From: an uncultured Anaerolineaceae bacterium
GTDB lineage: Bacteria; Chloroflexota; Anaerolineae; Anaerolineales; Villigracilaceae
Reading direction: 5' to 3'
NCBI GenBank assembly: GCA_964625215.1
Contig: CAZVAX010000001.1
Location: 30,354-94,353 of the forward strand
DNA length: 64,000 nucleotides
The first letter of the stretch is position 1. Each line of letters opens with the position of its first letter. The notes under the pieces were generated by a model. That model saw only the letters and a program-made list of their open reading frames with translations. It searched no databases and was not told where the DNA came from. This document shows positions 1,644 through 28,495 of the stretch, piece by piece. The position numbers and the translations under genes were made by a program.

Positions 1644-3251
1644 ATGACTAAAATTCTCCTCACAGCCCTGCTCGCCGCCGCGTTGCTCACTGCCTGCGCT
1701 TCTTCCAACGGGAAAGCGGGCGCGGTCCCCACCTACGACCCCTTCCTCCCCCTCGGCAATGACGCGGCGCCGACCATGATGATCGAGGTCAACCCGGGGA
1801 CGCTCACCGTCGCTACGCCCACCGAAATGCCCTTCATCGTCCCCACCGCCGTGCCGCTGGAATTGCTCGTTCCCACCTTCCGCCCCGCCGGACAACCCTT
1901 CCTCACCCCCACCCCCGACGGCGCGCATCAACTCCCCACCCCGCGCAGCGACGCCTCCGAGTACGTGGCGCAGCCCGGCGACAACCTCGGCGTCATCGCC
2001 CAAAGTTACGGCATCAGCGTGGAAGATTTGATGCAAGCCAACGGCCTGACCGACCCCAACCTGTTGAGCGCGGGCCAGGTGTTGACCATTCCGGTGTCCC
2101 GGCCCGAGGCGGCAGGTTCTTCGTTCAAGGTCATCCCCGACTCGGAATTGGTCTACGGTCCGGCCAGCGTGGACTTTAATGTGGAAAAATTCATCAAAGA
2201 GCGCGGCGGATTCCTCTCGGCCTACGCGGAGGAGGTCAACGGCGAATACTTGACCGCCGCGCAGATCGTCACGCGCGTGGCGCAGAATTACTCGGTCAAC
2301 CCGCGGCTCCTGCTGGCGCTCATCGAATATCGCAGCGGCTGGCTCACCAATCCCGCGCCCTTTCAAACCGACTTTGCCCTGAACATCGCAGATTACTCGC
2401 GCGCCGGACTCTACCGACAACTAACCTACGCGGCCAACGAACTCAATCGCGGCTACTACCTCTGGCGCGCAAACGCCGTGTCCACTTGGGTGTTGGCCGA
2501 CGGGACGATTGTCCCCGCCGATCCAGGCATCAACGCCGGAACAGCGGGAGTGCAAAACCTGTTCGCCCAACTCGATGACCGCGTCGCCTGGGCGTTGGAT
2601 GTGGGCGAGCCGACCGCCGACGCGCCCAGTTTTTACCAGACCTACTTTTTCTTGTTTGGCCGCCACCCCTTCGAGTACGCGGTCGAACCGCTCGTGCCGG
2701 TATGGCTCCACCAACCGCGCCTGGCCCTGCCCTTCGAGCGCGGCGTACCGTGGGTGTTCACCGGCGGCCCGCACGGCGGCTGGGACTCGGGGTCCGCCTG
2801 GGCCGCCCTCGACTTCTCGCCCGTTGCGGAAGAGTCAGGCTGTTTCCTCACCGACACCTGGGTTACCGCCATGACGAACGGACTTATCCTCCGCGCGGGA
2901 GAGGGACAGATCATCCAGGATCTCGACGGCGACGGTCACGAACAAACCGGCTGGGCGATCCTCTACATGCACGTTGAGGCGCGCGACCGCGTGCAACCGG
3001 GAACCTACGTTAAAGGCGGACAGCCCATCGGTCACGCCTCCTGCGAGGGAGGCTTTTCCAGCGCCACGCATCTTCACATCGCCCGCAAATACAACGGCGA
3101 ATGGATCGCCGCCGACGGTCACATTCCCTTCGCGCTGGATGGCTGGGTCTCCAGCGGAACCGGCGTGGAATACGACGGTTTCCTGGAACGCGCCGGCATT
3201 CTCCTCGAGGCCCTCGAAGGCATCAGCGAACTCAACACCATCATCCGTTGA
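1644..3251 (+). CDS. Lipoprotein with LysM domain and C-terminal M23-like metallopeptidase domain (paralog 1)
   Basis: Lipobox LLTACAS. LysM: YVAQPGDNLGVIAQSYGISVEDLMQANGL...GQVLTIP. C-terminus: GGPHGGWD...ALDFSP and SATHLHIARKYNGEWI (HxH). Confidence 0.8.
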   Translation: MTKILLTALLAAALLTACASSNGKAGAVPTYDPFLPLGNDAAPTMMIEVNPGTLTVATPTEMPFIVPTAVPLELLVPTFRPAGQPFLTPTPDGAHQLPTPRSDASEYVAQPGDNLGVIAQSYGISVEDLMQANGLTDPNLLSAGQVLTIPVSRPEAAGSSFKVIPDSELVYGPASVDFNVEKFIKERGGFLSAYAEEVNGEYLTAAQIVTRVAQNYSVNPRLLLALIEYRSGWLTNPAPFQTDFALNIADYSRAGLYRQLTYAANELNRGYYLWRANAVSTWVLADGTIVPADPGINAGTAGVQNLFAQLDDRVAWALDVGEPTADAPSFYQTYFFLFGRHPFEYAVEPLVPVWLHQPRLALPFERGVPWVFTGGPHGGWDSGSAWAALDFSPVAEESGCFLTDTWVTAMTNGLILRAGEGQIIQDLDGDGHEQTGWAILYMHVEARDRVQPGTYVKGGQPIGHASCEGGFSSATHLHIARKYNGEWIAADGHIPFALDGWVSSGTGVEYDGFLERAGILLEALEGISELNTIIR

Positions 3252-3308
3252 TGGAAGCAAGCCCAACACCCATCTGGCCTTAATCTCGGCAGGTATAATC
3301 CCACCAAC

Positions 3309-4904
3309 ATGAAACCGACAGCCACAATTCTGATCGTCGCCGCGTTGGCGCTGGCGGCCTGCGCGCCCACCGCCGACCTGGGCGTGTGGGGCGAATATCT
3401 TACCCCCACCGCCGTCATCCCAGCGAATCAAAGTCCCGCTGCCGAAACGCCGACGGTTCCCCCGCCCACCGCCACCAATTCCCTCCTGGAATTATTCCTG
3501 CCCACGGTGACGTTCACGCCGACGCCCACCCTGATTCTCCCCACCCAGTCGAGCGGACCCACCGCCACATCCGCCTCGCAAAGCGAATTGATCCTGTACT
3601 ACGCCCAAAGCGGAGACACGCTTCAGGTCGTGGCAAACCGCTTCGGGGTCAGCCCGAGCGAAATCACGTCGCCCAAAAACCTGCCGGGGACGGGTCTCAT
3701 TGATCCCGGCATCCTGCTCTTCATCCCGCGTCGCATCGCCGAACCGACCACCCCTAACATCCGCATCATGCCCGACGCCGAGTTGATCTTCTCCGCCTCC
3801 GCCGCCGACTTTAATACCGCGCAGTTCATCATCAACGCCAACGGTTACCTCAGCACGTTCCGGCAATGGACCGAGTCGGAGGGTTGGATGAGCGGCATGC
3901 GAACCATCGAGCGCGCCTCCTACGAAAATTCCATCAGCCCGCGCATCTTGCTGGCTCTGCTCGAATACAAATCGCATTGGGTGTACAGCGCGCCGTACAA
4001 CGCCCAAAACGAAGAGTACCCAATGGGATTCGAATCCATCAAATACAGGGGACTCTTTCTACAAATGGTGTGGACGATCAACCAACTCTACGCCGGTTAT
4101 TACGGCTGGCGCGCCGGCACGCTGACCGAACTTACCTTCCCCAACGGCGAAACCTTGCGCCTCAACCCCGAACTCAACGCCGGGACGGCGGCCTTGCAAT
4201 ATTTTTTCTCGCGGCAATACAACCGCGCCGAATGGGAGCAGATCCTCGACCCCAACTCGGTCAACAGTTTCATGGCTCTCTACGTGCAAATGTTCGGCGA
4301 CCCGGTTGCGCGCGCGCAGGCCGTTGACCCCATCTTCCCTCCCGGCGTGACTGCGCCGAAGATGGTCCTGCCCTTCGAGCCGAACCGCGAATGGAGTTTC
4401 ACCGGCGGGCCGCACGGCGCCTGGGAACACGACGGTCCGCTGGCCGCAGTGGATTTCGCCCCTTCCCTCGATCGCGCCGGGTGCGGGATGGCCAATTCCT
4501 GGGTCGTAGCCGCCGCGCCGGGTTTGGTGGTCCGCTCGGGCAACGGCGTGGTGATGGTGGATATGGATGGCGACGGACTCGAACAAACCGGCTGGAACAT
4601 TCTCTACCTGCATGTCGCCACCGAAGATCGCGTGGCCAAAGGAACCTGGCTCAAGACCGACGATCACATCGGTCACGCCTCCTGCGAGGGCGGCGCGTCC
4701 ACCGGCACGCACCTGCACTTCGCGCGCAAATACAACGGCGAATGGATTCCCGCCGACGGTCCCATCCCGATGATTCTCAGCGGCTGGACAGTCCACGCCG
4801 GCGCCAAACCCTACGAAGGCACAATGACGCGCGGCTCGCGCACGATCACCGCCGACCCGGTTGGACAGGCCTGGTCCATCATCATTCGCAAGCCCGATGA
4901 TTAA
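3309..4904 (+). CDS. Lipoprotein with LysM domain and M23-like peptidase domain (paralog 2)
   Basis: Lipobox LAACAP. LysM: YYAQSGDTLQVVANRFGVSPSEI. C-terminus: GGPHGAWE...AVDFAP, GTHLHFARKYNGEWIPADGP. Confidence 0.8.
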   Translation: MKPTATILIVAALALAACAPTADLGVWGEYLTPTAVIPANQSPAAETPTVPPPTATNSLLELFLPTVTFTPTPTLILPTQSSGPTATSASQSELILYYAQSGDTLQVVANRFGVSPSEITSPKNLPGTGLIDPGILLFIPRRIAEPTTPNIRIMPDAELIFSASAADFNTAQFIINANGYLSTFRQWTESEGWMSGMRTIERASYENSISPRILLALLEYKSHWVYSAPYNAQNEEYPMGFESIKYRGLFLQMVWTINQLYAGYYGWRAGTLTELTFPNGETLRLNPELNAGTAALQYFFSRQYNRAEWEQILDPNSVNSFMALYVQMFGDPVARAQAVDPIFPPGVTAPKMVLPFEPNREWSFTGGPHGAWEHDGPLAAVDFAPSLDRAGCGMANSWVVAAAPGLVVRSGNGVVMVDMDGDGLEQTGWNILYLHVATEDRVAKGTWLKTDDHIGHASCEGGASTGTHLHFARKYNGEWIPADGPIPMILSGWTVHAGAKPYEGTMTRGSRTITADPVGQAWSIIIRKPDD

Positions 4905-6351
4905 GAACGCGCTTCGTTTCATCATAGTCGCCTCCCTGCTCCTGCCCGCCTGCGCGCTAGCCGGAACAGCGCGACTCACCCCAACCCCCTCGCCCTCCCC
5001 AGAGACCGACTCTGTCGCCCTCTCAACCCATCGCCCCAACTACAATCCCGGCGAATTGGTGGACTACGCCGCCCAAACCGGCGACACCCTGCCAGCCCTG
5101 GCGGCGCGCTTCAACACCACAGTGGAGGAAATCCGCGCCGCCAATCCCTTCATCCCCGAAGACGCCACCACCATGCCGCCCGGCATGCCGATGAAGATTC
5201 CCATCTATTACCTGGCGTTGTGGGCCGACCATTATCAGATCATTCCCGACCACGCCTTCGTCAACGGCCCAACCCTGATCGGCTTCAACACCGCCGCGTT
5301 CGTCGCCTCCAGGAATGGCTGGCTCAAAGATTATCGCGCCTACGCGGGCGGCGATTGGCGTTCGGGCGCGGGCATCGTGGATTACGTCTCGGTCAACTTC
5401 AGCGTCAGTCCACGCCTCTTGTTAGCCCTGCTCGAATATCAAACCGGCGCGCTCTCCAATCCGGTCATGCCCAAAGATAAAAATCTGCTCGGTTTCCACA
5501 AGGAATACTACGACACCCTCTACCTCCAACTCGTGCAAGCCGCCGATATTCTAAACGACTCCTACTATCGCTGGCGCACCGGCGACCTGCTCGAATTCGA
5601 ACTGCTCGACGGCAGTCTCTTCCGGCCCGACCCGTGGGACAACGCCGCTTCCGTCAGCCTGAAACGGTACTTCTCCCTCCTTTATAACGGCGACCAATTC
5701 ACCGCATCCATCGGACCCTCGGGCCTGGCGCGCGCCTACACTGACCTCTTCGGCGACCCGTGGCAGGACCCCACCGTCCTCATCCCCGGCAGCCTGCGCC
5801 AACCCGAATTACCCCTGCCCTTCCAGGCGGGACAGGTCTGGTCCTACACGGGCGGTCCGCATACCGGCTACGGCGCCAGCCAACCCTACCCCGCTGTGGA
5901 CTTCGCGCCGCCTTCCGACAAAAGCGGATGCTTTGTGGCCGAATCGAAATATTACGTCATCGCCCTGGCGGATGGGATGATCGCGCGTTCCGAAACCGGG
6001 ACCGTCGTTCTCGACTTGGACGGCGACGGCAACGAGCGCACCGGCTGGGTTATCTACTACCTGCACATCGCCGGCCGCGTCCCGCTCGGACTCGAAGTGA
6101 AACGCGGCGACCCAATCGGTTATCCCTCCTGCGAGGGCGGACACGTCACCGGCACGCACGTTCACATCGCGCGCAAATACAACGGCGAATGGATTCCCGC
6201 CGACGGGCCGCTGGCCTTCGTGATGGACGGTTGGACCGTCCACGCCGGATACGCCCCCTACAAAGGCACCCTCACCAAAGGAAGCCTGATCGTCACCGCC
6301 TGCGAATGCGGCGACCTCTACAGCCAGGTTCGCGCGGGATTAGCGCCCTAG
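4897..6351 (+). CDS. Lipoprotein with LysM domain and M23-like peptidase domain (paralog 3)
   Basis: The internal ATG at 4897 gives the signal peptide MIKNALRFIIVASLLLPACALAG and overlaps the previous stop by 8 nt. LysM: YAAQTGDTLPALAARFNTTVEEI. C-terminus: GTHVHIARKYNGEWIPADGP. Confidence 0.8.
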   Translation: MIKNALRFIIVASLLLPACALAGTARLTPTPSPSPETDSVALSTHRPNYNPGELVDYAAQTGDTLPALAARFNTTVEEIRAANPFIPEDATTMPPGMPMKIPIYYLALWADHYQIIPDHAFVNGPTLIGFNTAAFVASRNGWLKDYRAYAGGDWRSGAGIVDYVSVNFSVSPRLLLALLEYQTGALSNPVMPKDKNLLGFHKEYYDTLYLQLVQAADILNDSYYRWRTGDLLEFELLDGSLFRPDPWDNAASVSLKRYFSLLYNGDQFTASIGPSGLARAYTDLFGDPWQDPTVLIPGSLRQPELPLPFQAGQVWSYTGGPHTGYGASQPYPAVDFAPPSDKSGCFVAESKYYVIALADGMIARSETGTVVLDLDGDGNERTGWVIYYLHIAGRVPLGLEVKRGDPIGYPSCEGGHVTGTHVHIARKYNGEWIPADGPLAFVMDGWTVHAGYAPYKGTLTKGSLIVTACECGDLYSQVRAGLAP

Positions 6352-21618: not shown

Positions 21619-22410
21619 ATGAGCGAATTAATTGAAGCGGCGCCGACGACGGCGATTGAACCAAAAACAAAACTTTCAGGCAAAGTAGCGAAAATAACAC
21701 TGGCGGGGGCCTTGATTGATCTAGGTCAGGAATTACCCGGGGTGCTCCACATCTCGCAAATCCAAAAAGATCCGGTCAATAAAGTGGAAGATGTTCTCAA
21801 GGTCGGCCAGCAGGTGGATGTGTGGGTGCGCCGCGCGCGCAAGGATCGCATCGAGGTGACGATGATTGAACCGATCGGCATGGAATGGGGCGAAATCAAA
21901 CCCGAGATGGTTGTGAAGGGCAAAGTGGTTCGACTCGAGGCCTACGGCGCGTTCGTGGACTTCGGAGCGGAGCGGCCCGGCATGGTGCATGTCAGCGAAC
22001 TGACGCGCGGTTACGTTAAGACCCCCGGCGAGATCGTCAAGGAAGGCGATGAAGTGGAAGCCGTGGTGTTGGAAGTGAATCGCAAGAAGAAGCAGATTCG
22101 CCTCTCGATGAAGGCGCTCATCCCCGAGATCGTACAAGAGGAAAAGCCAGCGCGCGAGGCTCGAGATGCTCGCGAACCCAGGAAGGGTCACGGCGGCAAG
22201 CGCGGCAAGAAGCACGAGGAAGAAATGGTCGAGGTAGACGAGACCCCGAAGGAACCCGAACTGACCGCCATGCAGATCGCCTGGCAGATGGCGATGGAAC
22301 GCTCCGGCGGCAAGGGCAAGACGGTGAAAATCAAGTCGGTCAAGTCTTCCCGTGAACAGGACGAACTTCTCAGCCGCACGCTGGAGAAACGCGTCCCCAC
22401 CGGTGGGTAA
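21619..22410 (+). CDS. S1 RNA-binding domain protein (two S1 domains plus Lys/Glu-rich tail)
   Basis: AGGAG RBS. GKVAKITLAGALIDLG... and GKVVRLEAYGAFVDFG...GMVHVSEL are S1 signatures. Confidence 0.8.
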   Translation: MSELIEAAPTTAIEPKTKLSGKVAKITLAGALIDLGQELPGVLHISQIQKDPVNKVEDVLKVGQQVDVWVRRARKDRIEVTMIEPIGMEWGEIKPEMVVKGKVVRLEAYGAFVDFGAERPGMVHVSELTRGYVKTPGEIVKEGDEVEAVVLEVNRKKKQIRLSMKALIPEIVQEEKPAREARDAREPRKGHGGKRGKKHEEEMVEVDETPKEPELTAMQIAWQMAMERSGGKGKTVKIKSVKSSREQDELLSRTLEKRVPTGG

Positions 22411-22425
22411 TCTCACGCAAGAATG

Positions 22426-22456
22426 AAACCGCCCTCGAATTCGAGGGCGGTTTTGA
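22426..22456. terminator. Bidirectional rho-independent terminator
   Basis: AAACCGCCCTCGAATTCGAGGGCGGTTTT perfect palindrome with flanking A and T runs, between convergent genes. Confidence 0.75.
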
Positions 22457-22510
22457 TTCGCTTCTGTATCGCGACATTCATGTCGCCTCCCGGGCGAGAT
22501 AAATTTCGCG

Positions 22511-24199
22511 TTACAGCTCGGCCTCCAACAATTGGATGAACTTCTCTTTGTTGGCAGCGCGCGCCACTTTGCCGCTGCTGGTTTTAATGACCCACTTCGG
22601 GCCGACTACGCGGACGTGACGCAACGCGATGGCGGAATTCTTCGTCACGTGCTGGCGGATCTCGTTCGCGACCCGGTCGTGCTCGGCCTCGTCGTGCGAC
22701 TCAACCTCCGCGATGATGACCACCTCCTCCGTCCCCTGTCCCTCGTCGAAGATACCGAAGGCCACCGTCCGCCCGGGATGCACGCCGGGGACTTCGCAGG
22801 CCAGCGCTTCCAAGTCCTGTGGATACACGTTCTTCCCGCCAACGATGATCAAATCCTTCTTACGTCCGGCCACGAAAATCTCGCCATTGACCATGTAGCC
22901 GTAATCGCCGGACATGTACCAACCGCCATGCAGGAAGGCTTTCTTGGTTAAGTCGGGGCGGTTGTAATACTCGTTCAACATGCAGTTGCTTTTCAACACA
23001 ATCTCGCCGACGTGACGTTCTGGCAGGTCGTGGCCTTTATTGTCCACGATGCGGATGGTGGTGTTGGGAATCGGCTTGCCGCAGGACATCATCTGAATGG
23101 AGGGGCGACCATCGAAGGCGGGACGCGCGATCTTTTCAGCGGTGAAAGACTCGCGGTCAATGTCTTCCACGTAGGGAAGTTTGGCGGTGTCGTTTTGGGT
23201 GGCGGCAAAGACGTTCTCAGCCATGCCGTAGGAGGTTTGGAGCGTTTCAAGTCGCAGGCCATAGGACTTGAAACGTTCGTAGAACATCTGGTGGCTTTTG
23301 TACTTGACCGGCTCGGAGGTGTTGATGCTGGCGCGCCAGGAGGAAAGGTCAACGCCTTCGAGATCGCGGTCGCGGATCTTTTGGGCGCAGAAGTTATAGG
23401 CGAAGTTCGGGACCCACGTCAGCGTGCCGCGATACTTGCTGATGGTCTGCAACATCTTATAGGGCGCGCGCACCCAGTCGAAGGGGGACATTTGGACGAC
23501 ATGGTTGCCGCGCAGGATGGGCATGAGGAAGCAGGCGATCAGTCCCATGTCGTGATAGAGCGGGAGCCAGGAGACGATGATGTCGTCGCGCGTGAGGCGG
23601 ATGGACTCGCCGTAGGCGTCGAGGTGGTTGAAGATGGCGCGATGGGAAAGCGCGACTCCCTTCTGGAGTCCTGTGGAGCCGGAGGAGTGTTGTAGCAGGA
23701 CGGTGTCATGTTCGTCGCGCGTCAGCCCGGGGAGGGAGGCGAAGTCCACCGAGGGTTCGCGGGCGATGCGGTCGGTAATGAAAACCTCGCGGACGGAGTG
23801 TCCGCTTTCTTCCACCATCATCTTCACGTCCGCTTCGAACTCGGGATAGGTGACAATACCGGTAGGACGGCTGTGCGTGAAAAGGGTGGTCAGGTCGGCG
23901 CGGTAACGTTCGGGGGAGAGTTTCTCGGTGAGGAAAGGCATCATCGAGGGGATGGCGCCGTGAAGGACCGCGCCCCAAAACGAGTAGACCAAGTCTTTGC
24001 CGTGCTGGAGGATGAGGATGATCACCTCGCCGGGCTGGATTCCCGCGCGGGCGTAGGCCGAGGCGTAGTCGTTGGAGCGCTCGACCAGTTCGTGGTAGGT
24101 GATGGTGAAGTCCGGCTGGTTCGGGTGTTGAAGCGTCACCGAAGGCCGGTCGGGTTCGGTGTCGTAAAAATTTTTTAGCGTATTGACGAACGTGGTCAT
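22511..24199 (-). CDS. Adenylate-forming enzyme, fatty-acyl-AMP ligase (FAAL)-like
   Basis: 562 aa. LLQHSSGSTGLQKGVALSH (A3 P-loop), YGMAENV, SGDYGY, GRKKDLIIVGGKNVYP. ATGA overlap with the carrier-protein gene. Confidence 0.85.
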   Translation of the reverse strand: MTTFVNTLKNFYDTEPDRPSVTLQHPNQPDFTITYHELVERSNDYASAYARAGIQPGEVIILILQHGKDLVYSFWGAVLHGAIPSMMPFLTEKLSPERYRADLTTLFTHSRPTGIVTYPEFEADVKMMVEESGHSVREVFITDRIAREPSVDFASLPGLTRDEHDTVLLQHSSGSTGLQKGVALSHRAIFNHLDAYGESIRLTRDDIIVSWLPLYHDMGLIACFLMPILRGNHVVQMSPFDWVRAPYKMLQTISKYRGTLTWVPNFAYNFCAQKIRDRDLEGVDLSSWRASINTSEPVKYKSHQMFYERFKSYGLRLETLQTSYGMAENVFAATQNDTAKLPYVEDIDRESFTAEKIARPAFDGRPSIQMMSCGKPIPNTTIRIVDNKGHDLPERHVGEIVLKSNCMLNEYYNRPDLTKKAFLHGGWYMSGDYGYMVNGEIFVAGRKKDLIIVGGKNVYPQDLEALACEVPGVHPGRTVAFGIFDEGQGTEEVVIIAEVESHDEAEHDRVANEIRQHVTKNSAIALRHVRVVGPKWVIKTSSGKVARAANKEKFIQLLEAEL

Positions 24200-24447
24200 T
24201 TCTTTTGCCTTGCGAGGATGAGGTTGGCGAGTTGCTCGATGGAATCGAAGGTGGAGGCATTCAGTTCCGAGTCGGCGATGCGAACCCCGAAGTTGTCCTC
24301 GACGAAGAGGGCCAGGTCCACCAGGCTAAATGAGTCGATCAGGCCGCCAGAGATGAGGGCTTCGGTTGGTTGGATGACGCGCTTGGGTTGCTTCAAAACT
24401 TGCTTGGCGATGAACTCGGAAATTTTTTGGTGCATTTCTGCGGACAT
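24196..24447 (-). CDS. Acyl/peptidyl carrier protein (DltC-like)
   Basis: 83 aa. GGLIDSFSLVDL carries the phosphopantetheine Ser context. Confidence 0.85.
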   Translation of the reverse strand: MSAEMHQKISEFIAKQVLKQPKRVIQPTEALISGGLIDSFSLVDLALFVEDNFGVRIADSELNASTFDSIEQLANLILARQKK

Positions 24448-24494
24448 GAGGAATCTCCTTTTACAAGAGCGCCATTATCCCACAACTGAAAAAT

Positions 24495-25631
24495 TTATGG
24501 GCAGGCGGATTCGAGAATGCGCGGCGCGAGCAGTTCGGCGTAGATTTCCTCGCCCGCAGGATCGAGATGAAAAATTTCGTTCGCGAACAAGGAGGGAGGG
24601 ATGGCATCCCAGTAATCCAGGTAGGCGTAGCCGCGCTGGATCATCCAATCGGCGAGGGACTGGCGATAGGCGTCGTAGGCCCAGCGCGGGTAGAGGGAGT
24701 TGTAGCGCAGGTCGCTGTTGCGGCCCGTGACGATGAAGATCGGCTCGTTGACCACGATGACGGGAGTCGGGCCGGCGATTTCGCGGCCGACGCGCAGGGT
24801 TTCGAAGAAGAGGGATTTGAGCAGAGTGGGAGTCTCGAAAGCGGCTTTGTACTCGAAGTACGAACGGTCGCGCTTCACCTCTTGCGGCACGGGCGGATGC
24901 TGCGCGGGCGCGGCGGCGTGATTGTCAATGCCAGTGGCGGCCCAGGGCGGGCCGAACAACTGGACGAGCAGGATGTTTTTCAGTCGCTTGCGCTGGCCGA
25001 TGAGGGTTTTATCCCAGAACGATGGCGCGGTCACGTCATCGTAGGCGGGAGGCAGGTTGAGATTGTATTCTTGCATGAGCGCGGACATCCGCTCGGCGTG
25101 AGGGACAAGGAATTGGCGTTCCTCGTTCTTCTTTTCGAAACTGTGCAGGGTGACGCCCCACAGGATCAAATCGGGTTGGTATTGCATGGCCGTGTCGAGG
25201 ATGAGCAGGTCGCGCAGGGTGGACGGCCAGGGGTAGCCGAGATTGAAGACGCGCACCTTACGCCCGTCGCAGGCGGTCAAGTCCATGCGATTGAGTTGCT
25301 CGGAGAGCGCGTCCTGGGCGCGGACGTGTCCGCCCCAAACAGCGGAGTCGCCCAAGAGGAAGACGCGAAATTCGTCGGGCTGTTTGGGTGAGGCCGAAAT
25401 GACGTGCGCGCCGAACATGGCGTCGAAGTCTTCGATGACCGGAGCGTTGTAACCCTGCAAGTAATACTCCGGCGACTCTTCATATGGAAAGCGCAGTCGT
25501 CCCTCCCAAAGGAGGTTGTAGCCGGTGATTTTTCCAATGGGAGGATTGAACGCGGCAAAGAGCAGGTTGAAGGTGGCGAAGAGGATGGCAGCTTTGATGA
25601 GGACGCGAGTCGCACTGACGGGTTGATTCAT
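24495..25631 (-). CDS. Membrane-anchored SGNH/DltD-like protein
   Basis: The ATG at 25631 lies 1 nt after the MBOAT stop. N-terminal TM: VLIKAAILFATFNLLFAAF. FRVFLLGDSAVWG resembles SGNH block I. Confidence 0.6.
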   Translation of the reverse strand: MNQPVSATRVLIKAAILFATFNLLFAAFNPPIGKITGYNLLWEGRLRFPYEESPEYYLQGYNAPVIEDFDAMFGAHVISASPKQPDEFRVFLLGDSAVWGGHVRAQDALSEQLNRMDLTACDGRKVRVFNLGYPWPSTLRDLLILDTAMQYQPDLILWGVTLHSFEKKNEERQFLVPHAERMSALMQEYNLNLPPAYDDVTAPSFWDKTLIGQRKRLKNILLVQLFGPPWAATGIDNHAAAPAQHPPVPQEVKRDRSYFEYKAAFETPTLLKSLFFETLRVGREIAGPTPVIVVNEPIFIVTGRNSDLRYNSLYPRWAYDAYRQSLADWMIQRGYAYLDYWDAIPPSLFANEIFHLDPAGEEIYAELLAPRILESACP

Positions 25632-25632
25632 G

Positions 25633-27066
25633 TCAGGACATCCCAAACAATTTCATGAACGCGGCGAGGGACAGCGCTGGCGTGGAGAGGGAGAAGAAGA
25701 CCAAGCCGAGGGCGAAATAGTTGAAGGTGAGGAAGACGCCGAGAGCGGCGAGCAGGTTGCGCGAGAGCGGGGTCACAGCGATGGATGGGAAGCGCGTGCG
25801 GGCCAGGTCGCTCCAGCGATTTTGGAGGAAGAGTCCGATGCCGTGCCAGAGACCCCAGAAAAGGAAGTTGAGGGTGATGCCGTGCCAGAGTCCGATGAGG
25901 GACAGGGTGACGAGTTGGGTTATAAGGATAATCAGCCAAATGGGGAGTTTCAGTTTTGAGGCGCGCAAGAAGCGGGTGAGGGGATTGAAAATGTAGGCGC
26001 GGAACCACTGGGTCAAGGTGATGTGCCAGGAGTTCCAGAATTGGGTCAGGTTGGACTTGAGGAAGGGCGCGGCGAAATTTTCGGGGAGGCGGATGCCCAG
26101 GAGTCGAGCGGTTCCGATGGCGATGTCGGTGTAGCCGCTGAAGTCGAAGTAGATGCGGAGGGTGTAGGCGTAGAGGAAGAGCCACAACCAGCCGGAGGAG
26201 TCGGCTTGGCGGACGAGCGCGTCGGAGATGGAGAGCCAGGCCAGACCGTCCGCGAGAACGAACTTTTTGAAGAGGCCGATCGCGAGGCGCGTCCCCGCGT
26301 CGAGCCAGTCGTCGTTCACCAGGCGCGTCGGCGCGCGGAGGTCGGGGAGGAAGCGTTCGAGGCGGTCAATCGGGCCGGAAGCGATGGAGGGAAAGAAGAT
26401 AACGTAGCAGAGGAATTCGTCGAGGGAGGCGGCGGGCAGGATGCCGGACTGGCGGTCGCGGATAACGTGGAGCAGGCGGAAGGCGACGTAGGAGTAGCCG
26501 AGCCAGGCGAGGCTGAGGGTGACGTTGGAGTCAATCTCGAAGGGCTGGCCGCGCAGCGAGGCGGAGAGCGCGAAAAATTGACGCGTGAGCCAGGGCGATT
26601 TGAGAACGATGAAGATGGCGAGCAGGCCGAGGATGCCGAGGATTTGCGCGAGACCCTCGCCGCGTTGGAGGGAGGCGAGGCCGAGGGTGAGGAGGAAAAA
26701 GAGGATGAGCGCGGCGAGAATAAATTGAATCGGCGGGATGACGATGTCCGTCATCCAGTTGATCGGAAGGAGACGAAGCGCGACCGCGAGCAGGATCGCG
26801 GCGGACATCACCGCCAACGCGGGCCAGTTATCTTTGATGCGGCGGGATTCGGGAGGGGCGGTGAAAGTCCAGACGAGGGCGACGATAAAGAGGGTGAGGA
26901 CAGGCAGCCAGAACGGGAGACTCGGAATGAGTTTGTCGGCGGGAGAAAGCCAGAAGAGGACGAGCGCGCTGAATCCCGCGAGGGCGAGGGTGCGGACGCG
27001 CCCGCGCAGGGTCAGACCGATGAGCGCCGCGAGCGCGACGAGGAGAAGGATTTGCGCGACGGTCAC
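25633..27066 (-). CDS. MBOAT family O-acyltransferase (DltB/AlgI-like)
   Basis: 477 aa, polytopic. FWNSWHITLTQWFRAYIFNP and LIGLWHGITLNFLFWGLWHG contain the conserved MBOAT His. Confidence 0.9.
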   Translation of the reverse strand: MTVAQILLLVALAALIGLTLRGRVRTLALAGFSALVLFWLSPADKLIPSLPFWLPVLTLFIVALVWTFTAPPESRRIKDNWPALAVMSAAILLAVALRLLPINWMTDIVIPPIQFILAALILFFLLTLGLASLQRGEGLAQILGILGLLAIFIVLKSPWLTRQFFALSASLRGQPFEIDSNVTLSLAWLGYSYVAFRLLHVIRDRQSGILPAASLDEFLCYVIFFPSIASGPIDRLERFLPDLRAPTRLVNDDWLDAGTRLAIGLFKKFVLADGLAWLSISDALVRQADSSGWLWLFLYAYTLRIYFDFSGYTDIAIGTARLLGIRLPENFAAPFLKSNLTQFWNSWHITLTQWFRAYIFNPLTRFLRASKLKLPIWLIILITQLVTLSLIGLWHGITLNFLFWGLWHGIGLFLQNRWSDLARTRFPSIAVTPLSRNLLAALGVFLTFNYFALGLVFFSLSTPALSLAAFMKLFGMS

Positions 27067-27198
27067 TTAGAAGCCTTGGTAGATCCAGGAGGGGGTGATG
27101 TCGGCGGTGAAGATGACCAGCGCGGTGACGATGAGCGCCAGCGCGAGGGCGAGCATGTTTTCGCGGGTGAGGAGGCGGGAGAGGAGGGATTTGAGCAT
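27067..27198 (-). CDS. DltX-like micro-protein (43 aa), not in the ORF track
   Basis: Own translation: MLKSLLSRLLTRENMLALALALIVTALVIFTADITPSWIYQGF. It has one TM helix and a C-terminal aromatic-I-Y-x-x-F end, as in DltX (FIYNEF). Its stop abuts the MBOAT GTG start. Confidence 0.5.
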   Translation of the reverse strand: MLKSLLSRLLTRENMLALALALIVTALVIFTADITPSWIYQGF

Positions 27199-27233
27199 AG
27201 AGATTCTCGAAATAGATTCCGCAACACAAAGTC

Positions 27234-27290
27234 ACCAAGACACAAAGACACAAATTTTTCTTGGCGACCTCGAGTCTTTGTGCCTTGGTG
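27234..27290 (-). terminator. 17-bp hairpin downstream of prfB
   Basis: CACCAAGACACAAAGAC / GTCTTTGTGCCTTGGTG. The single mismatch is A-C on the plus strand but a G-U wobble on minus-strand RNA. Confidence 0.5.
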
Positions 27291-27311
27291 TTCAGAAGCC
27301 AGGAAAGCGCG

Positions 27312-28395
27312 CTACGCGTGTTGGCGCAGGTAGGCCTCCATGAAATCGTCCAGCGCGCCGTCGAGGACGGCGGAGGTGTTGCCGGTTTCGTGGTCGGTGC
27401 GGTGATCCTTCACCATTTGGTAGGGATGCAACACGTATGAGCGGATCTGACTCCCCCACTCAGCCTTGGTGTATTCGCCGCGCAAGACCGCGACCTCCTC
27501 CTCTTTTTCGGCTTGCTTGATCTCCACCAGGCGGGCGCGCAGGATGCGCATGGCGAACTCGCGGTTCTGTGTCTGCGAGCGTTCGTTCTGGCAGGTGACG
27601 ACGATGCCGGTGGGCAGATGCGTGAGGCGGATGGCGGTGGAGTTTTTCTGCACGTTCTGTCCGCCCGCGCCGGAGGAACGGAACACGTCAATTTTGATCT
27701 CGCTCGGGTCAATCGAAATGTCCGGGTCGTCCATCGCGATCTGCGGCAGGACCTCGATCAGCGCGAAGGAGGTGTGACGCCGGTGCGCCGCGTCGAAGGG
27801 AGAGAGGCGCACGAGACGATGCACGCCCTTTTCGGAGCGCAGGTAGCCGAAGGCGTATTTTCCGTCCACGGCAATGGTGACGGATTTGATGCCCGCCTCC
27901 TCGCCCTCGGAACGATCCATGATTTCGGTCTCGAATCCTTTTTTCTCGGCCCAGCGCAGGAACATGCGCTCCAGCATGGCGGCCCAGTCCTGCGAGTCGG
28001 TGCCGCCCGCGCCGGCGTGGATGGCGAGGATGGCGCTATCGTCGTCGTACTTGCCGGAGAACATGGCGTTGAAGGCGCGCGTAGAAACTTCTTTCTCGAT
28101 AAAGTCCACTTCGTTTTCGAGGTCGGCGCGCAGACTCTCATCGTCCATGCGCGAGAGTTCGAGCGTGTCGTGAACGTGCTGGCGAAAAGCGCGCCACGAG
28201 TCCACTTGCTCGCGCAAAGTGGCGGCGGACTTGCTCACGCGCTGGGCGGTCTGCGAGTCGTTCCAGAAATCCGGCGCGGCGATCTGTTTGTCGAAGTCAG
28301 CGAGTTGGGATTCCTTCGAGGCGAAGTCAAAGACGCTCCAGAAGCTGGGCGATGGTTTCCTGCGCGGCGGTCAGTCGGTTGATCAGGTCTTGCAT
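27312..28395 (-). CDS. prfB: Peptide chain release factor 2, requires programmed +1 frameshift
   Basis: Frame 0 from the ATG at 28395: MQDLINRLTAAQETIAQLLERL then TGA. The +1 frame continues DFASKESQLADFDKQIAAPDFWNDSQTAQRVSKSAATLREQ into the 308-aa track ORF, which contains the SPF-type region and GGQ (SGAGGQNVQK). Confidence 0.9.
28326..28332 (-). promoter_or_regulatory. RF2 +1 frameshift site CTT TGA C with upstream internal SD
   Basis: The minus strand reads CTGGAGCGTCTTTGAC: GGAG 3 nt before CTT, then in-frame TGA followed by C. Confidence 0.85.
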
Positions 28396-28428
28396 TGGTT
28401 CCTCCAAAGCGGTAGAGCAAAACCCTTT

Positions 28429-28495
28429 GCCACGAATTTCACGGATTTCACGAATTTTTTTATATCCATTCGCGCCCATTCGTGAAATTCGCGGC
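28429..28495 (-). terminator. 15-bp hairpin downstream of ftsY
   Basis: GCCACGAATTTCACG / CGTGAAATTCGCGGC. The mismatch becomes a G-U wobble only on minus-strand RNA. Confidence 0.45.

Follow-up and report, generated by a model that had tools for sequence, protein, structure and literature searches.

The closest described system is the Dlt operon of Bacillota (DltX-DltA-DltB-DltC-DltD), in which the microprotein DltX carries an FxYxxF shuttle motif (PMC12148441). The non-Dlt MBOAT/SGNH pathways work without a microprotein, carrier protein or adenylase (PMC12148441). FAALs pass their acyl groups on to holo-ACP and do not accept CoA (PMC8460268), and the FAAL-specific insertion is their defining feature (PMC12820801, PMC8460268). 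In the literature searched we found neither a description of the five-gene system presented here nor a relevant paper with both a FAAL and an MBOAT, and MBOAT proteins go unmentioned in a 2026 survey of the genomic contexts of FAALs (PMC12820801).

The window analyzed in this study is a stretch of 64,000 nucleotides from an uncultured Chloroflexota bacterium of the class Anaerolineae, in agreement with the non-Firmicute host assumed in the preliminary description. Five genes lie at 22511-27198 in the order X-B-D-C-A, all on the minus strand, to which all coordinates below refer. X (27067-27198; 43 aa, MLKSLLSRLLTRENMLALALALIVTALVIFTADITPSWIYQGF) encodes a DltX-like membrane microprotein, B (25633-27066; 477 aa, GTG start) a DltB-like MBOAT acyltransferase, D (24495-25631; 378 aa) an N-terminally membrane-anchored SGNH-fold protein, C (24196-24447; 83 aa) an acyl carrier protein and A (22511-24199; 562 aa) a FAAL-type adenylate-forming enzyme. 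The length of D is counted from the ATG at 25631; the mechanical list of open reading frames starts it with a TTG 5 codons earlier. Reading the sequence, we observed that the TAA of X directly abuts the GTG of B, that 1 nt separates the TGA of B from the ATG of D, that D and C are 47 nt apart and that C and A share an ATGA overlap. The unit is closed by a convergent gene. Reading frames, lengths, coordinates and junctions were thus as previously described, and the gene call that JGI made independently for this metagenome contig contains the same five genes, including the 43-aa ORF. The cluster is flanked by prfB, ftsY and trx on one side and by S1, zwf, gnd and pgl on the other. None of the neighbouring genes inspected was for acceptor synthesis or encoded a PKS, an NRPS or another evident consumer of acyl-ACP. 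With just five genes, the cluster in the window is the minimal form; many relatives have additional genes.

Microprotein X has a basic N-terminus and, according to hydropathy, a single TM helix at approximately residues 15-33, which leaves a C-terminal tail predicted to be extracytoplasmic. The tail ends in WIYQGF (W38-I-Y40-Q-G-F43; 27070-27087), a putative acyl-shuttle motif with Tyr40 (27079-27081) as the predicted acyl acceptor. It resembles the end of S. aureus DltX (FIYNEF), although none of the DltX models of Pfam or NCBIfam matched X in profile searches. In related loci, WIYQG[F/Y] terminated 63 of the 64 recovered copies of X (WIYQSF in the remaining one), and the wider pattern P-x-WIYQG[F/Y] was near-invariant, while B and D had diverged to 40-60% identity.

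B matched Pfam MBOAT (2.1e-20), and its sole NCBIfam match was DltB, with 213 bits, under the equivalog cutoff of 375. Residues 181-459 aligned with the DltB structures 8jem and 6bug (E ~2e-44). In this alignment His395 of the LWHGI motif (25882-25884) corresponds to the invariant catalytic His336 of DltB, and His348 of SWHIT (26023-26025) to DltB His289 (active-site residues according to PMC11035591). The protein ends in FMKLFGMS; neither B nor any of 70 orthologues carries a fused [FWY]xYxx[FY] tail. Stand-alone MBOATs adjoining GDSL genes do end in such a motif (FIYYQF, FFYFDF, FIYWSF), and the tail of X resembles these ends as well. Judged from the sequences, the arrangement is the split architecture of the Dlt type, with an MBOAT lacking the tail and the motif on a separate microprotein.

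One TM segment is located at approximately residues 10-28 of D. The AF2 model (pLDDT 84, pTM 0.85) had GDSL/SGNH esterases as its best Foldseek matches (probability 0.97-0.99). In Pfam and NCBIfam profile searches D itself gave a sub-threshold GDSL match only, and its homologues P0291 and P0252 scored above the Pfam GDSL threshold (36 and 35 bits). The family comprises 2834 members in 90% clusters, with 225 representatives at E<=1e-30. An alignment of 33 sequences revealed an invariant G94-D95-S96, in which Ser96 (25344-25346) is the putative SGNH block I nucleophile, and an invariant His355 (24567-24569), the putative catalytic base. Homologue P0264 is fused to a CE4 polysaccharide-deacetylase domain. 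D had been described as SGNH/DltD-like; the SGNH fold and the DltD topology stand, but comparison with real DltD gave no significant sequence or profile similarity (hhalign probability 0.67%). Therefore "SGNH partner analogous to DltD" is the fitting term, and we predict that D is an extracytoplasmic acyl-serine transferase, functionally analogous to DltD.

C matched Pfam PP-binding with 23.7 bits (cutoff 20.8). Generic ACPs were its best NCBIfam matches, DltC models reached just 17.6-21.7 bits, and similarity to S. aureus DltC was weak and local, around the serine. The predicted phosphopantetheine attachment site is Ser39 in IDSFS (24331-24333).

A matched Pfam AMP-binding (6.3e-51). The profile searches that had been recommended for the cluster matched MBOAT, AMP-binding and PP-binding, and neither DltX nor DltD. 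The best NCBIfam matches of A were FAAL/long-chain models (363 and 361 bits; FAAL PRK09192, 363), with a score under every curated FAAL cutoff, and the DltA model was absent from the 25 best. A aligned end to end with the FAALs of L. pneumophila (3kxw, E 6e-74) and E. coli (3pbk, E 3e-67), and both the FAAL-specific insertion and the helix regions were covered. The insertion, residues 337-372 (DTAKLPYVEDIDRESFTAEKIARPAFDGRPSIQMMS; 23084-23191), follows the YGMAE (A5) motif and aligns without a large gap to its LpFAAL and EcFAAL counterparts; a MAFFT alignment of 43 orthologues and S. aureus DltA showed that these ~30 residues are missing in DltA, to which A is only 20% identical (pairwise E 2e-4). 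In Foldseek the AlphaFold (AF2) model of A gave FAAL structures on top (E 2e-46), and FAALs or McyG exclusively at ranks 1-28; the top 15 were all fatty-acid-activating FAALs with C12-C20 adenylates bound, and DltA was outside the top 50. The profiles, PDB alignments, insertion and helix regions and predicted fold together support placing A in the FAAL clade and not with DltA, as the preliminary description had proposed. McyG, a phenylpropanoid enzyme, was also close (1e-60, Foldseek rank 16), and so was the keto-acid-selecting adenylation domain of StsA (3e-58, rank 29). Since such enzymes score near FAALs, a "fatty" cargo is not proven.

We wanted to know whether the genes stay together in relatives. 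A genome scan gave 595 confirmed stretches encoding relatives of D, and 80 related loci were kept for neighbourhood counts. B adjoined D in 69 of the 73 loci with room for it, and in at least 63 of 73 X immediately preceded B. Of the 54 loci whose sequence extends for 6.5 kb or more downstream, 41 (76%) have C and A there, on the same strand. In the other 13 the C-A pair was not within 7 kb of X-B-D, and in many further loci 1-4 kb of extra genes separated the two parts; the functional link between X-B-D and C-A is therefore strong, not absolute. The grouping persisted across relatives down to ~40% identity. The five-gene arrangement is far beyond chance, and the operon is conserved across Anaerolineae. 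With co-conserved genes, a FAAL-clade adenylase and a Chloroflexota host, the reading first given to the cluster is supported. Many relatives also encode further exported lipoproteins of SGNH-like type, together with a small lipoprotein rich in Cys; a small conserved lipoprotein directly upstream of X, frequent in related loci, is absent from this window.

These results make it probable that the cluster encodes a carrier-protein-dependent relay, Dlt-built and fed by a FAAL-type enzyme, that takes an acyl group out of the cytoplasm and across the membrane. What the analysis shows is the parts with their motifs, predicted folds, topology and shared conservation, as described above; on the template of Dlt and PatAB (PMC12148441), we infer the direction and chemistry of each transfer. 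A would adenylate a free carboxylic acid in the cytoplasm, for which its class makes a medium- or long-chain fatty acid the most probable candidate, and then attach the acyl group by a thioester bond to the phosphopantetheine arm that C carries at Ser39. Acyl-C would then dock at the cytoplasmic face of B, where His395 may catalyse transfer through the membrane to Tyr40 of the WIYQGF tail of X. The acyl-tyrosine tail could swing to D and acylate Ser96, and D would finally esterify an extracytoplasmic acceptor, for which a wall polysaccharide, glycolipid or protein of the Anaerolineae envelope would be candidates. As D lacks significant DltD similarity and X matches no DltX model, the analogy with Dlt is drawn from architecture and motif and does not imply that every part is homologous.

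The same relay might carry something other than a fatty acid, namely a small, aromatic, keto, hydroxy or amino acid, and we regard this as a minority possibility. McyG and StsA match A nearly as well as true FAALs do, A stays under all curated FAAL cutoffs, and for a DltB-type tunnel passage is known only for a small group. However, the 15 highest-ranking structures and the best matches by sequence are fatty-acid-activating FAALs, and A contains the insertion as well as the helix regions of FAALs. Where acetyl-CoA synthetase has its acetate-gating Trp, A presumably has the Gly of YGMAE, which also counts against such a cargo. Were the cargo non-fatty, the product would be a charge- or polarity-modifying ester, nearer in spirit to D-alanylation or acetylation.

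The acceptor could be a membrane lipid, glycolipid or lipoprotein instead of a wall polymer, so that the relay would remodel lipids of the outer leaflet. We consider this unlikely. Polysaccharide and teichoic-acid genes are absent near the cluster, eukaryotic MBOATs acylate lipids and proteins (PMC11035591), and the small lipoprotein upstream of X in many related loci could be a substrate or partner; yet this lipoprotein is missing here, every bacterial MBOAT-SGNH pair that has been characterised acts on glycopolymers (PMC12148441), and the CE4 fusion of P0264 hints at a carbohydrate substrate.

It is quite improbable that X-B-D is a self-contained, acyl-CoA-dependent O-acetylation system (PatAB/AlgIJ-like) and C-A a neighbouring pair serving another pathway, such as lipid or secondary-metabolite synthesis. 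The 13 loci without a nearby C-A pair and the intervening genes in many others would agree with it, FAAL-ACP pairs normally supply PKS, NRPS or lipid enzymes (PMC11837247, PMC12820801), and the higher identity of A and C (84% and 82%) than of B and D (60% each) to locus L001 would fit different selective regimes. Against this, D and C are closely spaced on one strand here, with overlapping C and A and a convergent gene closing the unit; the C-A pair follows in 76% of the testable loci, deeply diverged ones included; no acyl-ACP consumer of the PKS or NRPS kind is near the cluster; and, apart from this cluster, the literature knows the split-microprotein type of MBOAT only in Dlt, which depends on a carrier protein (PMC12148441). 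An ordinary dlt operon, D-alanylating teichoic acids with a divergent DltA, has the five-part list matching dltXABCD, the DltB equivalog match of B and the DltX-like tail of X in its favour, but is hardly credible and largely refuted by the class of the adenylase (FAAL models ~360 bits, DltA not among the best 25, an insertion missing in DltA, a model matching FAAL structures), with D outside the DltD family, B well under its cutoff, C at 22 bits or less on DltC models and a host phylum whose envelope polymers are uncharacterised (PMC13319060).

We compared the proposed FAAL-fed relay with known systems. If its cargo is fatty, it resembles PORCN, HHAT and GOAT, treated alongside DltB in PMC11035591, in that an MBOAT takes a long acyl chain from a thioester in the cytosol and passes it to an acceptor across the membrane. 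Those enzymes, unlike this cluster, have no tyrosine shuttle, SGNH partner, dedicated adenylase or ACP, and the resemblance is a functional analogy only. AlmEFG of Vibrio cholerae, which adds glycine to lipid A, is likewise a carrier-protein-dependent envelope modification outside Firmicutes with an adenylase and carrier pair. However, AlmE is DltA-like and AlmG is an LpxL-type transferase on the cytoplasmic face, and to our knowledge AlmEFG has no MBOAT, microprotein or SGNH partner.

Stand-alone FAAL-ACP pairs (EcFAAL-ACP, LpFAAL, FadD32-Pks13, lipopeptide and olefin-synthase loading) share with the cluster an adenylase that is FAAL-type in its sequence and predicted fold as well as in its insertion and helix region; here it is translationally coupled to a small ACP. 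Those pairs feed PKS, NRPS, condensation or lipid-synthesis enzymes, whereas in this operon the MBOAT is the only plausible acyl consumer. In PatA/PatB (peptidoglycan), AlgI/AlgJ/AlgX (alginate) and similar uncharacterised pairs, as here, an MBOAT adjoins an extracytoplasmic SGNH protein and a tyrosine-containing hexapeptide shuttle is present; their MBOATs are 31-36% identical to B over ~290 aa, similar to DltB. In contrast to our cluster, their shuttle motif is fused to the MBOAT's own C-terminus, and they use acyl-CoA.

With Dlt the cluster shares a separate single-TM microprotein ending in [F/W]-x-Y-x-x-F, an MBOAT without fused tail and with both active-site histidines, a small carrier protein with an adenylate-forming enzyme, a ~380-aa SGNH-fold partner with an N-terminal TM anchor, and the presence of all five genes in one operon. 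The parts list thus mirrors DltX/DltB/DltD/DltC/DltA as first suggested, with D by analogy. It differs from the Bacillota system in that the adenylase is a FAAL and not DltA, the SGNH protein is outside Pfam DltD, X, C and B are all under the curated Dlt models, the host belongs to Chloroflexota/Anaerolineae, and the order is X-B-D-C-A instead of X-A-B-C-D, a difference already seen in the preliminary description. The operon unites the Dlt membrane relay, which in Gram-positives places D-alanine onto teichoic acids, with a fatty-acid-type activating enzyme, and it suggests an undescribed way to acylate the poorly understood cell envelope of Chloroflexota.

We scanned the window for open reading frames and recovered five co-directional genes on the minus strand, exactly where the preliminary description had placed them. 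The first encodes X, a microprotein of 43 aa (27067-27198). It is followed by the genes of the MBOAT protein B (25633-27066, 477 aa, GTG start), the SGNH-fold protein D (24495-25631, 378 aa counted from the ATG at 25631), the carrier protein C (24196-24447, 83 aa) and the adenylase A (22511-24199, 562 aa). Direct reading of the sequence agreed with the junctions described previously: TTC TAA at the end of X is immediately followed by GTG ACC of B, the genes of B and D are separated by 1 nt (TGA-C-ATG), and those of C and A share an ATGA overlap (AAATGACC). The spacer between D and C, read in the same way, was 47 nt. The gene call of JGI, made independently on this metagenome contig, lists the identical five genes, that of 43 aa among them.

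In the JGI gene call, prfB, ftsY and a thioredoxin gene lie upstream of the cluster, and a convergent S1-domain gene, zwf, gnd and pgl lie downstream. Given these neighbours, the cluster has housekeeping genes around it and none for polymer synthesis close by. There were no teichoic-acid genes within 10 kb on either side, and the 64-kb window contained neither paralogues of the cluster genes nor the accessory genes known from related loci. A promoter and terminator scan of positions 22300-27500 detected no promoter-like sites, and its single terminator-like site was located inside A on the wrong strand; therefore the scan was uninformative.

Just upstream of the cluster, the prfB gene (release factor 2; 27312-28479, minus strand) is in two parts: an ORF of 50 aa terminates with GAG CGT CTT TGA C, and the +1 frame runs on into a 308-aa ORF. 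The shift site, CTT TGA C, is located at 28332-28326 on the minus strand. The arrangement corresponds to the classic +1 programmed frameshift by which prfB regulates itself; JGI annotates it as two genes. Approximately 16 kb past the downstream (A) end of the cluster, three successive large genes lie on the plus strand (1644-6351; 535, 531 and 484-496 aa). Their products contain LysM and/or M23-peptidase domains and are probable peptidoglycan hydrolases.

The adenylase had been proposed to be of FAAL type and distinct from DltA. This was borne out by HMM searches, by comparison with PDB sequences, by the FAAL insertion and by Foldseek. The best curated models for A were FAAL/long-chain subfamilies (363 and 361 bits), and the DltA model was not among its top 25 NCBIfam matches. 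Because the NCBIfam FAAL subfamily scores were under the curated cutoffs (363 vs 600), we class A, on these scores, as a new FAAL subfamily. Its core ANL motifs (A3, SSGSTGLQKG at 172; A5, YGMAEN at 324; A7, GDYGY at 431; A8, GRKKD at 445; and SSGKV at 541, with the A10 Lys) were all conserved across 43 orthologues. The closest solved structures were LpFAAL (3kxw, 6e-74) and EcFAAL (3pbk, 3e-67), with which A aligned end to end, followed by the olefin-synthase FAAL domain (1e-62) and FadD32 (1e-52); McyG and a keto-acid A domain were also among the best solved relatives.

The FAAL class is defined by a specific insertion and a specific helix (PMC8460268, from which the helix definition was taken; also PMC12820801). 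Residues 337-372 of A, located after YGMAE, aligned without a large gap to the FAAL-specific insertion of LpFAAL and EcFAAL, and the segment SPFDWVRAP aligned ungapped with RTQDFAMRP of EcFAAL, the FAAL-specific helix. In a MAFFT alignment of 43 A orthologues and S. aureus DltA, the 337-372 insertion was missing from DltA, and the pairwise identity between A and this DltA was 20% (E 2e-4). The AlphaFold model of A (pLDDT 79) was matched at Foldseek ranks 1-15 by FAALs exclusively (E ~1e-44 to 1e-46, TM ~0.7), and many of these structures contain bound C12-C20 acyl-adenylates.

The 83-aa protein had been described as a carrier, and the HMM search identified in C a PP-binding domain with Ser39 in an IDSFS motif. 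DltC models scored 17.6-21.7 bits on C (cutoffs 52-68), generic ACP models scored higher, and the similarity to S. aureus DltC was weak and local. FAALs deliver their acyl group to holo-ACP and do not accept CoA (PMC8460268), which fits the overlap between the genes of C and A.

X was said previously to be a single-TM, DltX-like microprotein, and its architecture and motif agree with this. Its N-terminus is basic (K3, R8, R12), a single hydrophobic helix spans approximately residues 15-33, and a tail of 12 residues follows; the predicted topology is therefore N-in/C-out. The extreme C-terminus reads P-x-W-I-Y-Q-G-[F/Y] in 63 of 64 related loci and WIYQSF in the remaining one, so that the tail stays near-invariant while the adjacent MBOAT falls to 40-60% identity. 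The hexapeptide WIYQGF fits the FxYxxF acyl shuttle motif, with W and not F at position 1; the C-terminus of S. aureus DltX, fetched for comparison, is NNFIYNEF. According to the summary of Schultz et al. 2023 in Anderson et al. 2025 (PMC12148441), the invariant Tyr of FxYxxF takes the acyl group from the MBOAT and hands it to the SGNH protein. X matched no Pfam or NCBIfam models, those of DltX included, apart from one spurious sub-threshold hit to DUF3392; its resemblance to the Dlt microprotein thus lies in motif and architecture and not in a family model. The X family is overlooked by the present Pfam and NCBIfam models, and such operons carry only the annotations 'hypothetical', 'MBOAT' and 'AMP-binding'.

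B matched Pfam MBOAT (2e-20), and its sole NCBIfam match was the DltB equivalog model. The score of 213 bits is below the cutoff of 375, so B is not an equivalog. Both families of DltB structures in the PDB (8jem, 6bug) were matched at ~2e-44 over residues 181-459. In the alignment, His395 of B (GLWHG) corresponds to the invariant catalytic His336 of DltB and His348 (FWNSWH) to its His289; the DltB-like character proposed previously was thus recovered, with both active-site His residues kept and no tail. A [FWY]xYxx[FY] tail was absent from B of the window, from 70 of 70 orthologues and from S. aureus DltB. Among the architectural features this one was decisive, and for this reason B is of the split, Dlt-type design.

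The contrast class for this comparison of tails was formed by plasmid MBOATs of Methylomonas, Sphingomonas and Tistrella. Three stand-alone MBOATs encoded beside GDSL genes on proteobacterial plasmids terminate in FIYYQF, FFYFDF and FIYWSF. We rejected the plasmid homologues as relatives of the system, as they are fused-motif MBOAT-GDSL pairs with neither carrier nor adenylase.

D was the one component whose earlier label, 'DltD-like', held in part. Size, topology, the N-terminal anchor (one TM helix) and the SGNH fold agreed with it; family membership did not. Pfam DltD (PF04914) did not match D, and the profile of D gave no significant match to the S. aureus DltD sequence (probability 0.1%) or to a profile of 21 DltD sequences (probability 0.67%, E 0.085). 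The profile comparison contained a suggestive C-terminal alignment with the same 16-residue spacing from Asp to His. Since the comparisons with DltD were not significant, we dropped the designation of D as a DltD homologue. D has an SGNH fold and resembles DltD in size and topology, but is not demonstrably homologous to it.

The sequence of D matched nothing in the PDB, even at E<=10. Pfam GDSL scored 17 bits, which is sub-threshold, and several family members passed with 35-36 bits. In an alignment of 33 sequences the block G94-D95-S96 was invariant, as were Asp339 and His355; the Asp of the canonical SGNH DxxH is not conserved, and Asp339 may substitute for it. The AlphaFold model of D (pLDDT 84, pTM 0.85) had small GDSL/SGNH esterases as its best Foldseek matches (probability 0.97-0.99, target-normalised TM 0.53-0.61, with weak E values of ~1e-2), and DltD was not among the top 50.

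We analyzed the distribution of the cluster by a genome scan with the profile of D, one genome per species, which yielded at least 595 confirmed stretches. The best 80 of these at least 595 loci were inspected and compared with the five window proteins by tblastn. All named homologues of D came from Chloroflexota/Anaerolineales metagenome bins, in line with the non-Firmicute host that had been pointed out. The best 80 loci belonged to Anaerolineae-type Chloroflexota (Anaerolineales, Caldilineales, Thermoflexales, Roseilinea, Leptolinea, Longilinea and others) with two exceptions, an unclassified MAG and a 'Bacteroidota' MAG with Anaerolineae synteny, which is probably misbinned. The D family is large, with 2834 clusters at 90% identity (E<=1e-3) and 225 representatives at 50% identity (E<=1e-30).

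Among the best 80 loci, B adjoined D in 69 of the 73 with upstream room, and X was found in at least 63 of these 73. Where at least 6.5 kb of downstream sequence was available (54 loci), C and then A followed on the same strand in 41, and in 13 loci C-A was not found within 7 kb. C was located between B and D in three loci, and in about half of the loci D and C were set apart by 1-4 kb of extra genes. From these adjacency counts, X-B-D is a tight core and C-A a frequent, non-obligatory neighbour, the tie between the two being statistical. Co-conservation had been left as a point to check, and the cluster genes do recur together across these related Anaerolineae-type loci. Identity to the related locus L001 was 84% for A, 82% for C, 74% for X and 60% for both B and D. 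The cytoplasmic parts are thus much better conserved than those in the membrane or exported, as would fit an acyl donor that is fixed and an acceptor side that varies more.

Some loci differed from the window in gene content. A close relative with the same prfB ... S1 synteny (L090:3578-7049, JGI 3300042991 contig) has the order X-B-D-C-A-A', with the FAAL gene in tandem duplicate (the two copies, of 562 and 591 aa, share 87% and 78% identity with A of the window). This suggests two acyl substrates or sub-functionalisation. On the 212-kb plasmid AP024711 of Leptolinea sp. HRD-7, a cultured Anaerolineae isolate (L085:7337-10381), X and B are present, and ~1.4 kb of repeat-rich, apparently non-coding DNA follows B in place of D. 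There was no C or A within 8 kb on either side, and the copy may have decayed or been split.

In 47 of 80 related loci, one to three extra exported lipoprotein-like proteins are encoded between D and C (e.g. L016:8133-9068, L063:8077-9072, L063:9059-10033, L063:10052-12127, L014:8139-9983). These proteins are ~45% identical to each other and contain blocks of SGNH type, 'GDCQ' or 'GDGE' close to the N-terminus and 'DGFH' close to the C-terminus; in some, a PD40 beta-propeller is fused on. Additional roles in acyl transfer or as esterases are possible for them; the 64-kb window contained no homologue. A small lipoprotein gene precedes X directly and on the same strand in 42 of 80 related loci (e.g. 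L042:4963-5364, L063:5026-5433). Its conserved product is ~105 aa long when mature and keeps four cysteines, in the pattern SCAxWE...LxC...VxCxGK...WLVCGY. This lipoprotein was absent from the window and its closest relatives (L001-L008), and could be an accessory factor or even an acceptor.

Fusions occur among D-family proteins from the representative library (P0264, P0252, P0292): some have a second GDSL domain, and one, P0264 (654 aa), is joined to a CE4 polysaccharide-deacetylase domain (PF01522, 3.8e-18), a hint of the Rosetta-stone type that the acceptor is a glycan or carbohydrate.

The analysis shows the parts of a proposed acyl relay, their motifs and topology, the folds predicted for them and their co-conservation. 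The chemistry that follows is inferred from the Dlt and PatAB systems by analogy. A would adenylate a carboxylic acid and load it onto C; B, through His395, would move the acyl group across the membrane onto Tyr40 of X; the acyl-Tyr tail of X would deliver it to Ser96 of D, and D would esterify an extracytoplasmic acceptor. A fatty acid is the most probable cargo, although relatives that activate phenylpropanoids and keto acids score nearly as high as FAALs. If the cargo is a fatty acid, this would be a bacterial acyl-tyrosine relay able to move lipids. We consider it possible, with some doubt, that in this cluster a bacterial MBOAT pathway exports, for the first time, a fatty acyl group of medium or long chain (from the FAAL through ACP, MBOAT and acyl-Tyr microprotein to the SGNH protein) for covalent esterification onto an extracytoplasmic envelope component of Anaerolineae. 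If so, lipidation of a wall polymer could form the hydrophobic outer layer that some 'monoderm' Chloroflexota show, a functional parallel to the mycoloylation of arabinogalactan from wholly different parts. Chloroflexota envelopes are multilayered, have neither LPS nor BAM, and contain polymers uncharacterised in composition (PMC13319060). Their layers are visible structurally and undefined chemically, and the cluster gives a concrete point from which this chemistry can be tested.

Two designs of envelope acylation by MBOAT/SGNH proteins have been described (PMC12148441). Dlt combines a microprotein shuttle, a carrier protein and DltA with D-alanine; all others have a fused shuttle and use acyl-CoA. 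In the PatAB/AlgIJ type the MBOAT itself bears the shuttle hexapeptide, fused at its C-terminus on two additional TM helices; the donor is acyl-CoA and there is no carrier. The non-Dlt pathways are stated to have neither a DltX-like microprotein nor a carrier protein (PMC12148441). Our literature searches on dlt-like, DltB-like and DltX-like systems, on Chloroflexi with DltB or D-alanylation and on FAAL with MBOAT returned nothing relevant, and a 2026 survey of the diversity of FAALs and of the genomic contexts in which they occur (PMC12820801) makes no mention of MBOATs.

The cluster resembles Dlt in its separate single-TM microprotein with a shuttle-type C-terminus, encoded together with the MBOAT, and in an MBOAT that has no fused shuttle tail and keeps the catalytic and the second active-site His. 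Unlike in Dlt, the adenylase is not the D-alanine-specific DltA of ~500 aa, which misses the insertion present in A, and D lies outside PF04914, with size, topology and SGNH fold alone in common with DltD. Unlike in PatAB/AlgIJ, B has no hexapeptide-bearing C-terminal tail, and the operon encodes a carrier protein and an adenylase. Since the cluster matches neither design and our literature searches returned no comparable case, we class it as a variant of the Dlt-type relay. It widens the known partners of FAAL-ACP beyond PKS, NRPS and lipid enzymes, and extends the split-shuttle/carrier relay to hundreds of genomes of a non-Firmicute phylum. In summary, the cluster encodes a probable relay of Dlt architecture, widespread in Anaerolineae, in which a FAAL replaces DltA and the SGNH partner is another one. 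It breaks the two-type dichotomy, as a Dlt-style split shuttle and carrier are combined with a FAAL-class adenylase and a non-DltD SGNH protein.
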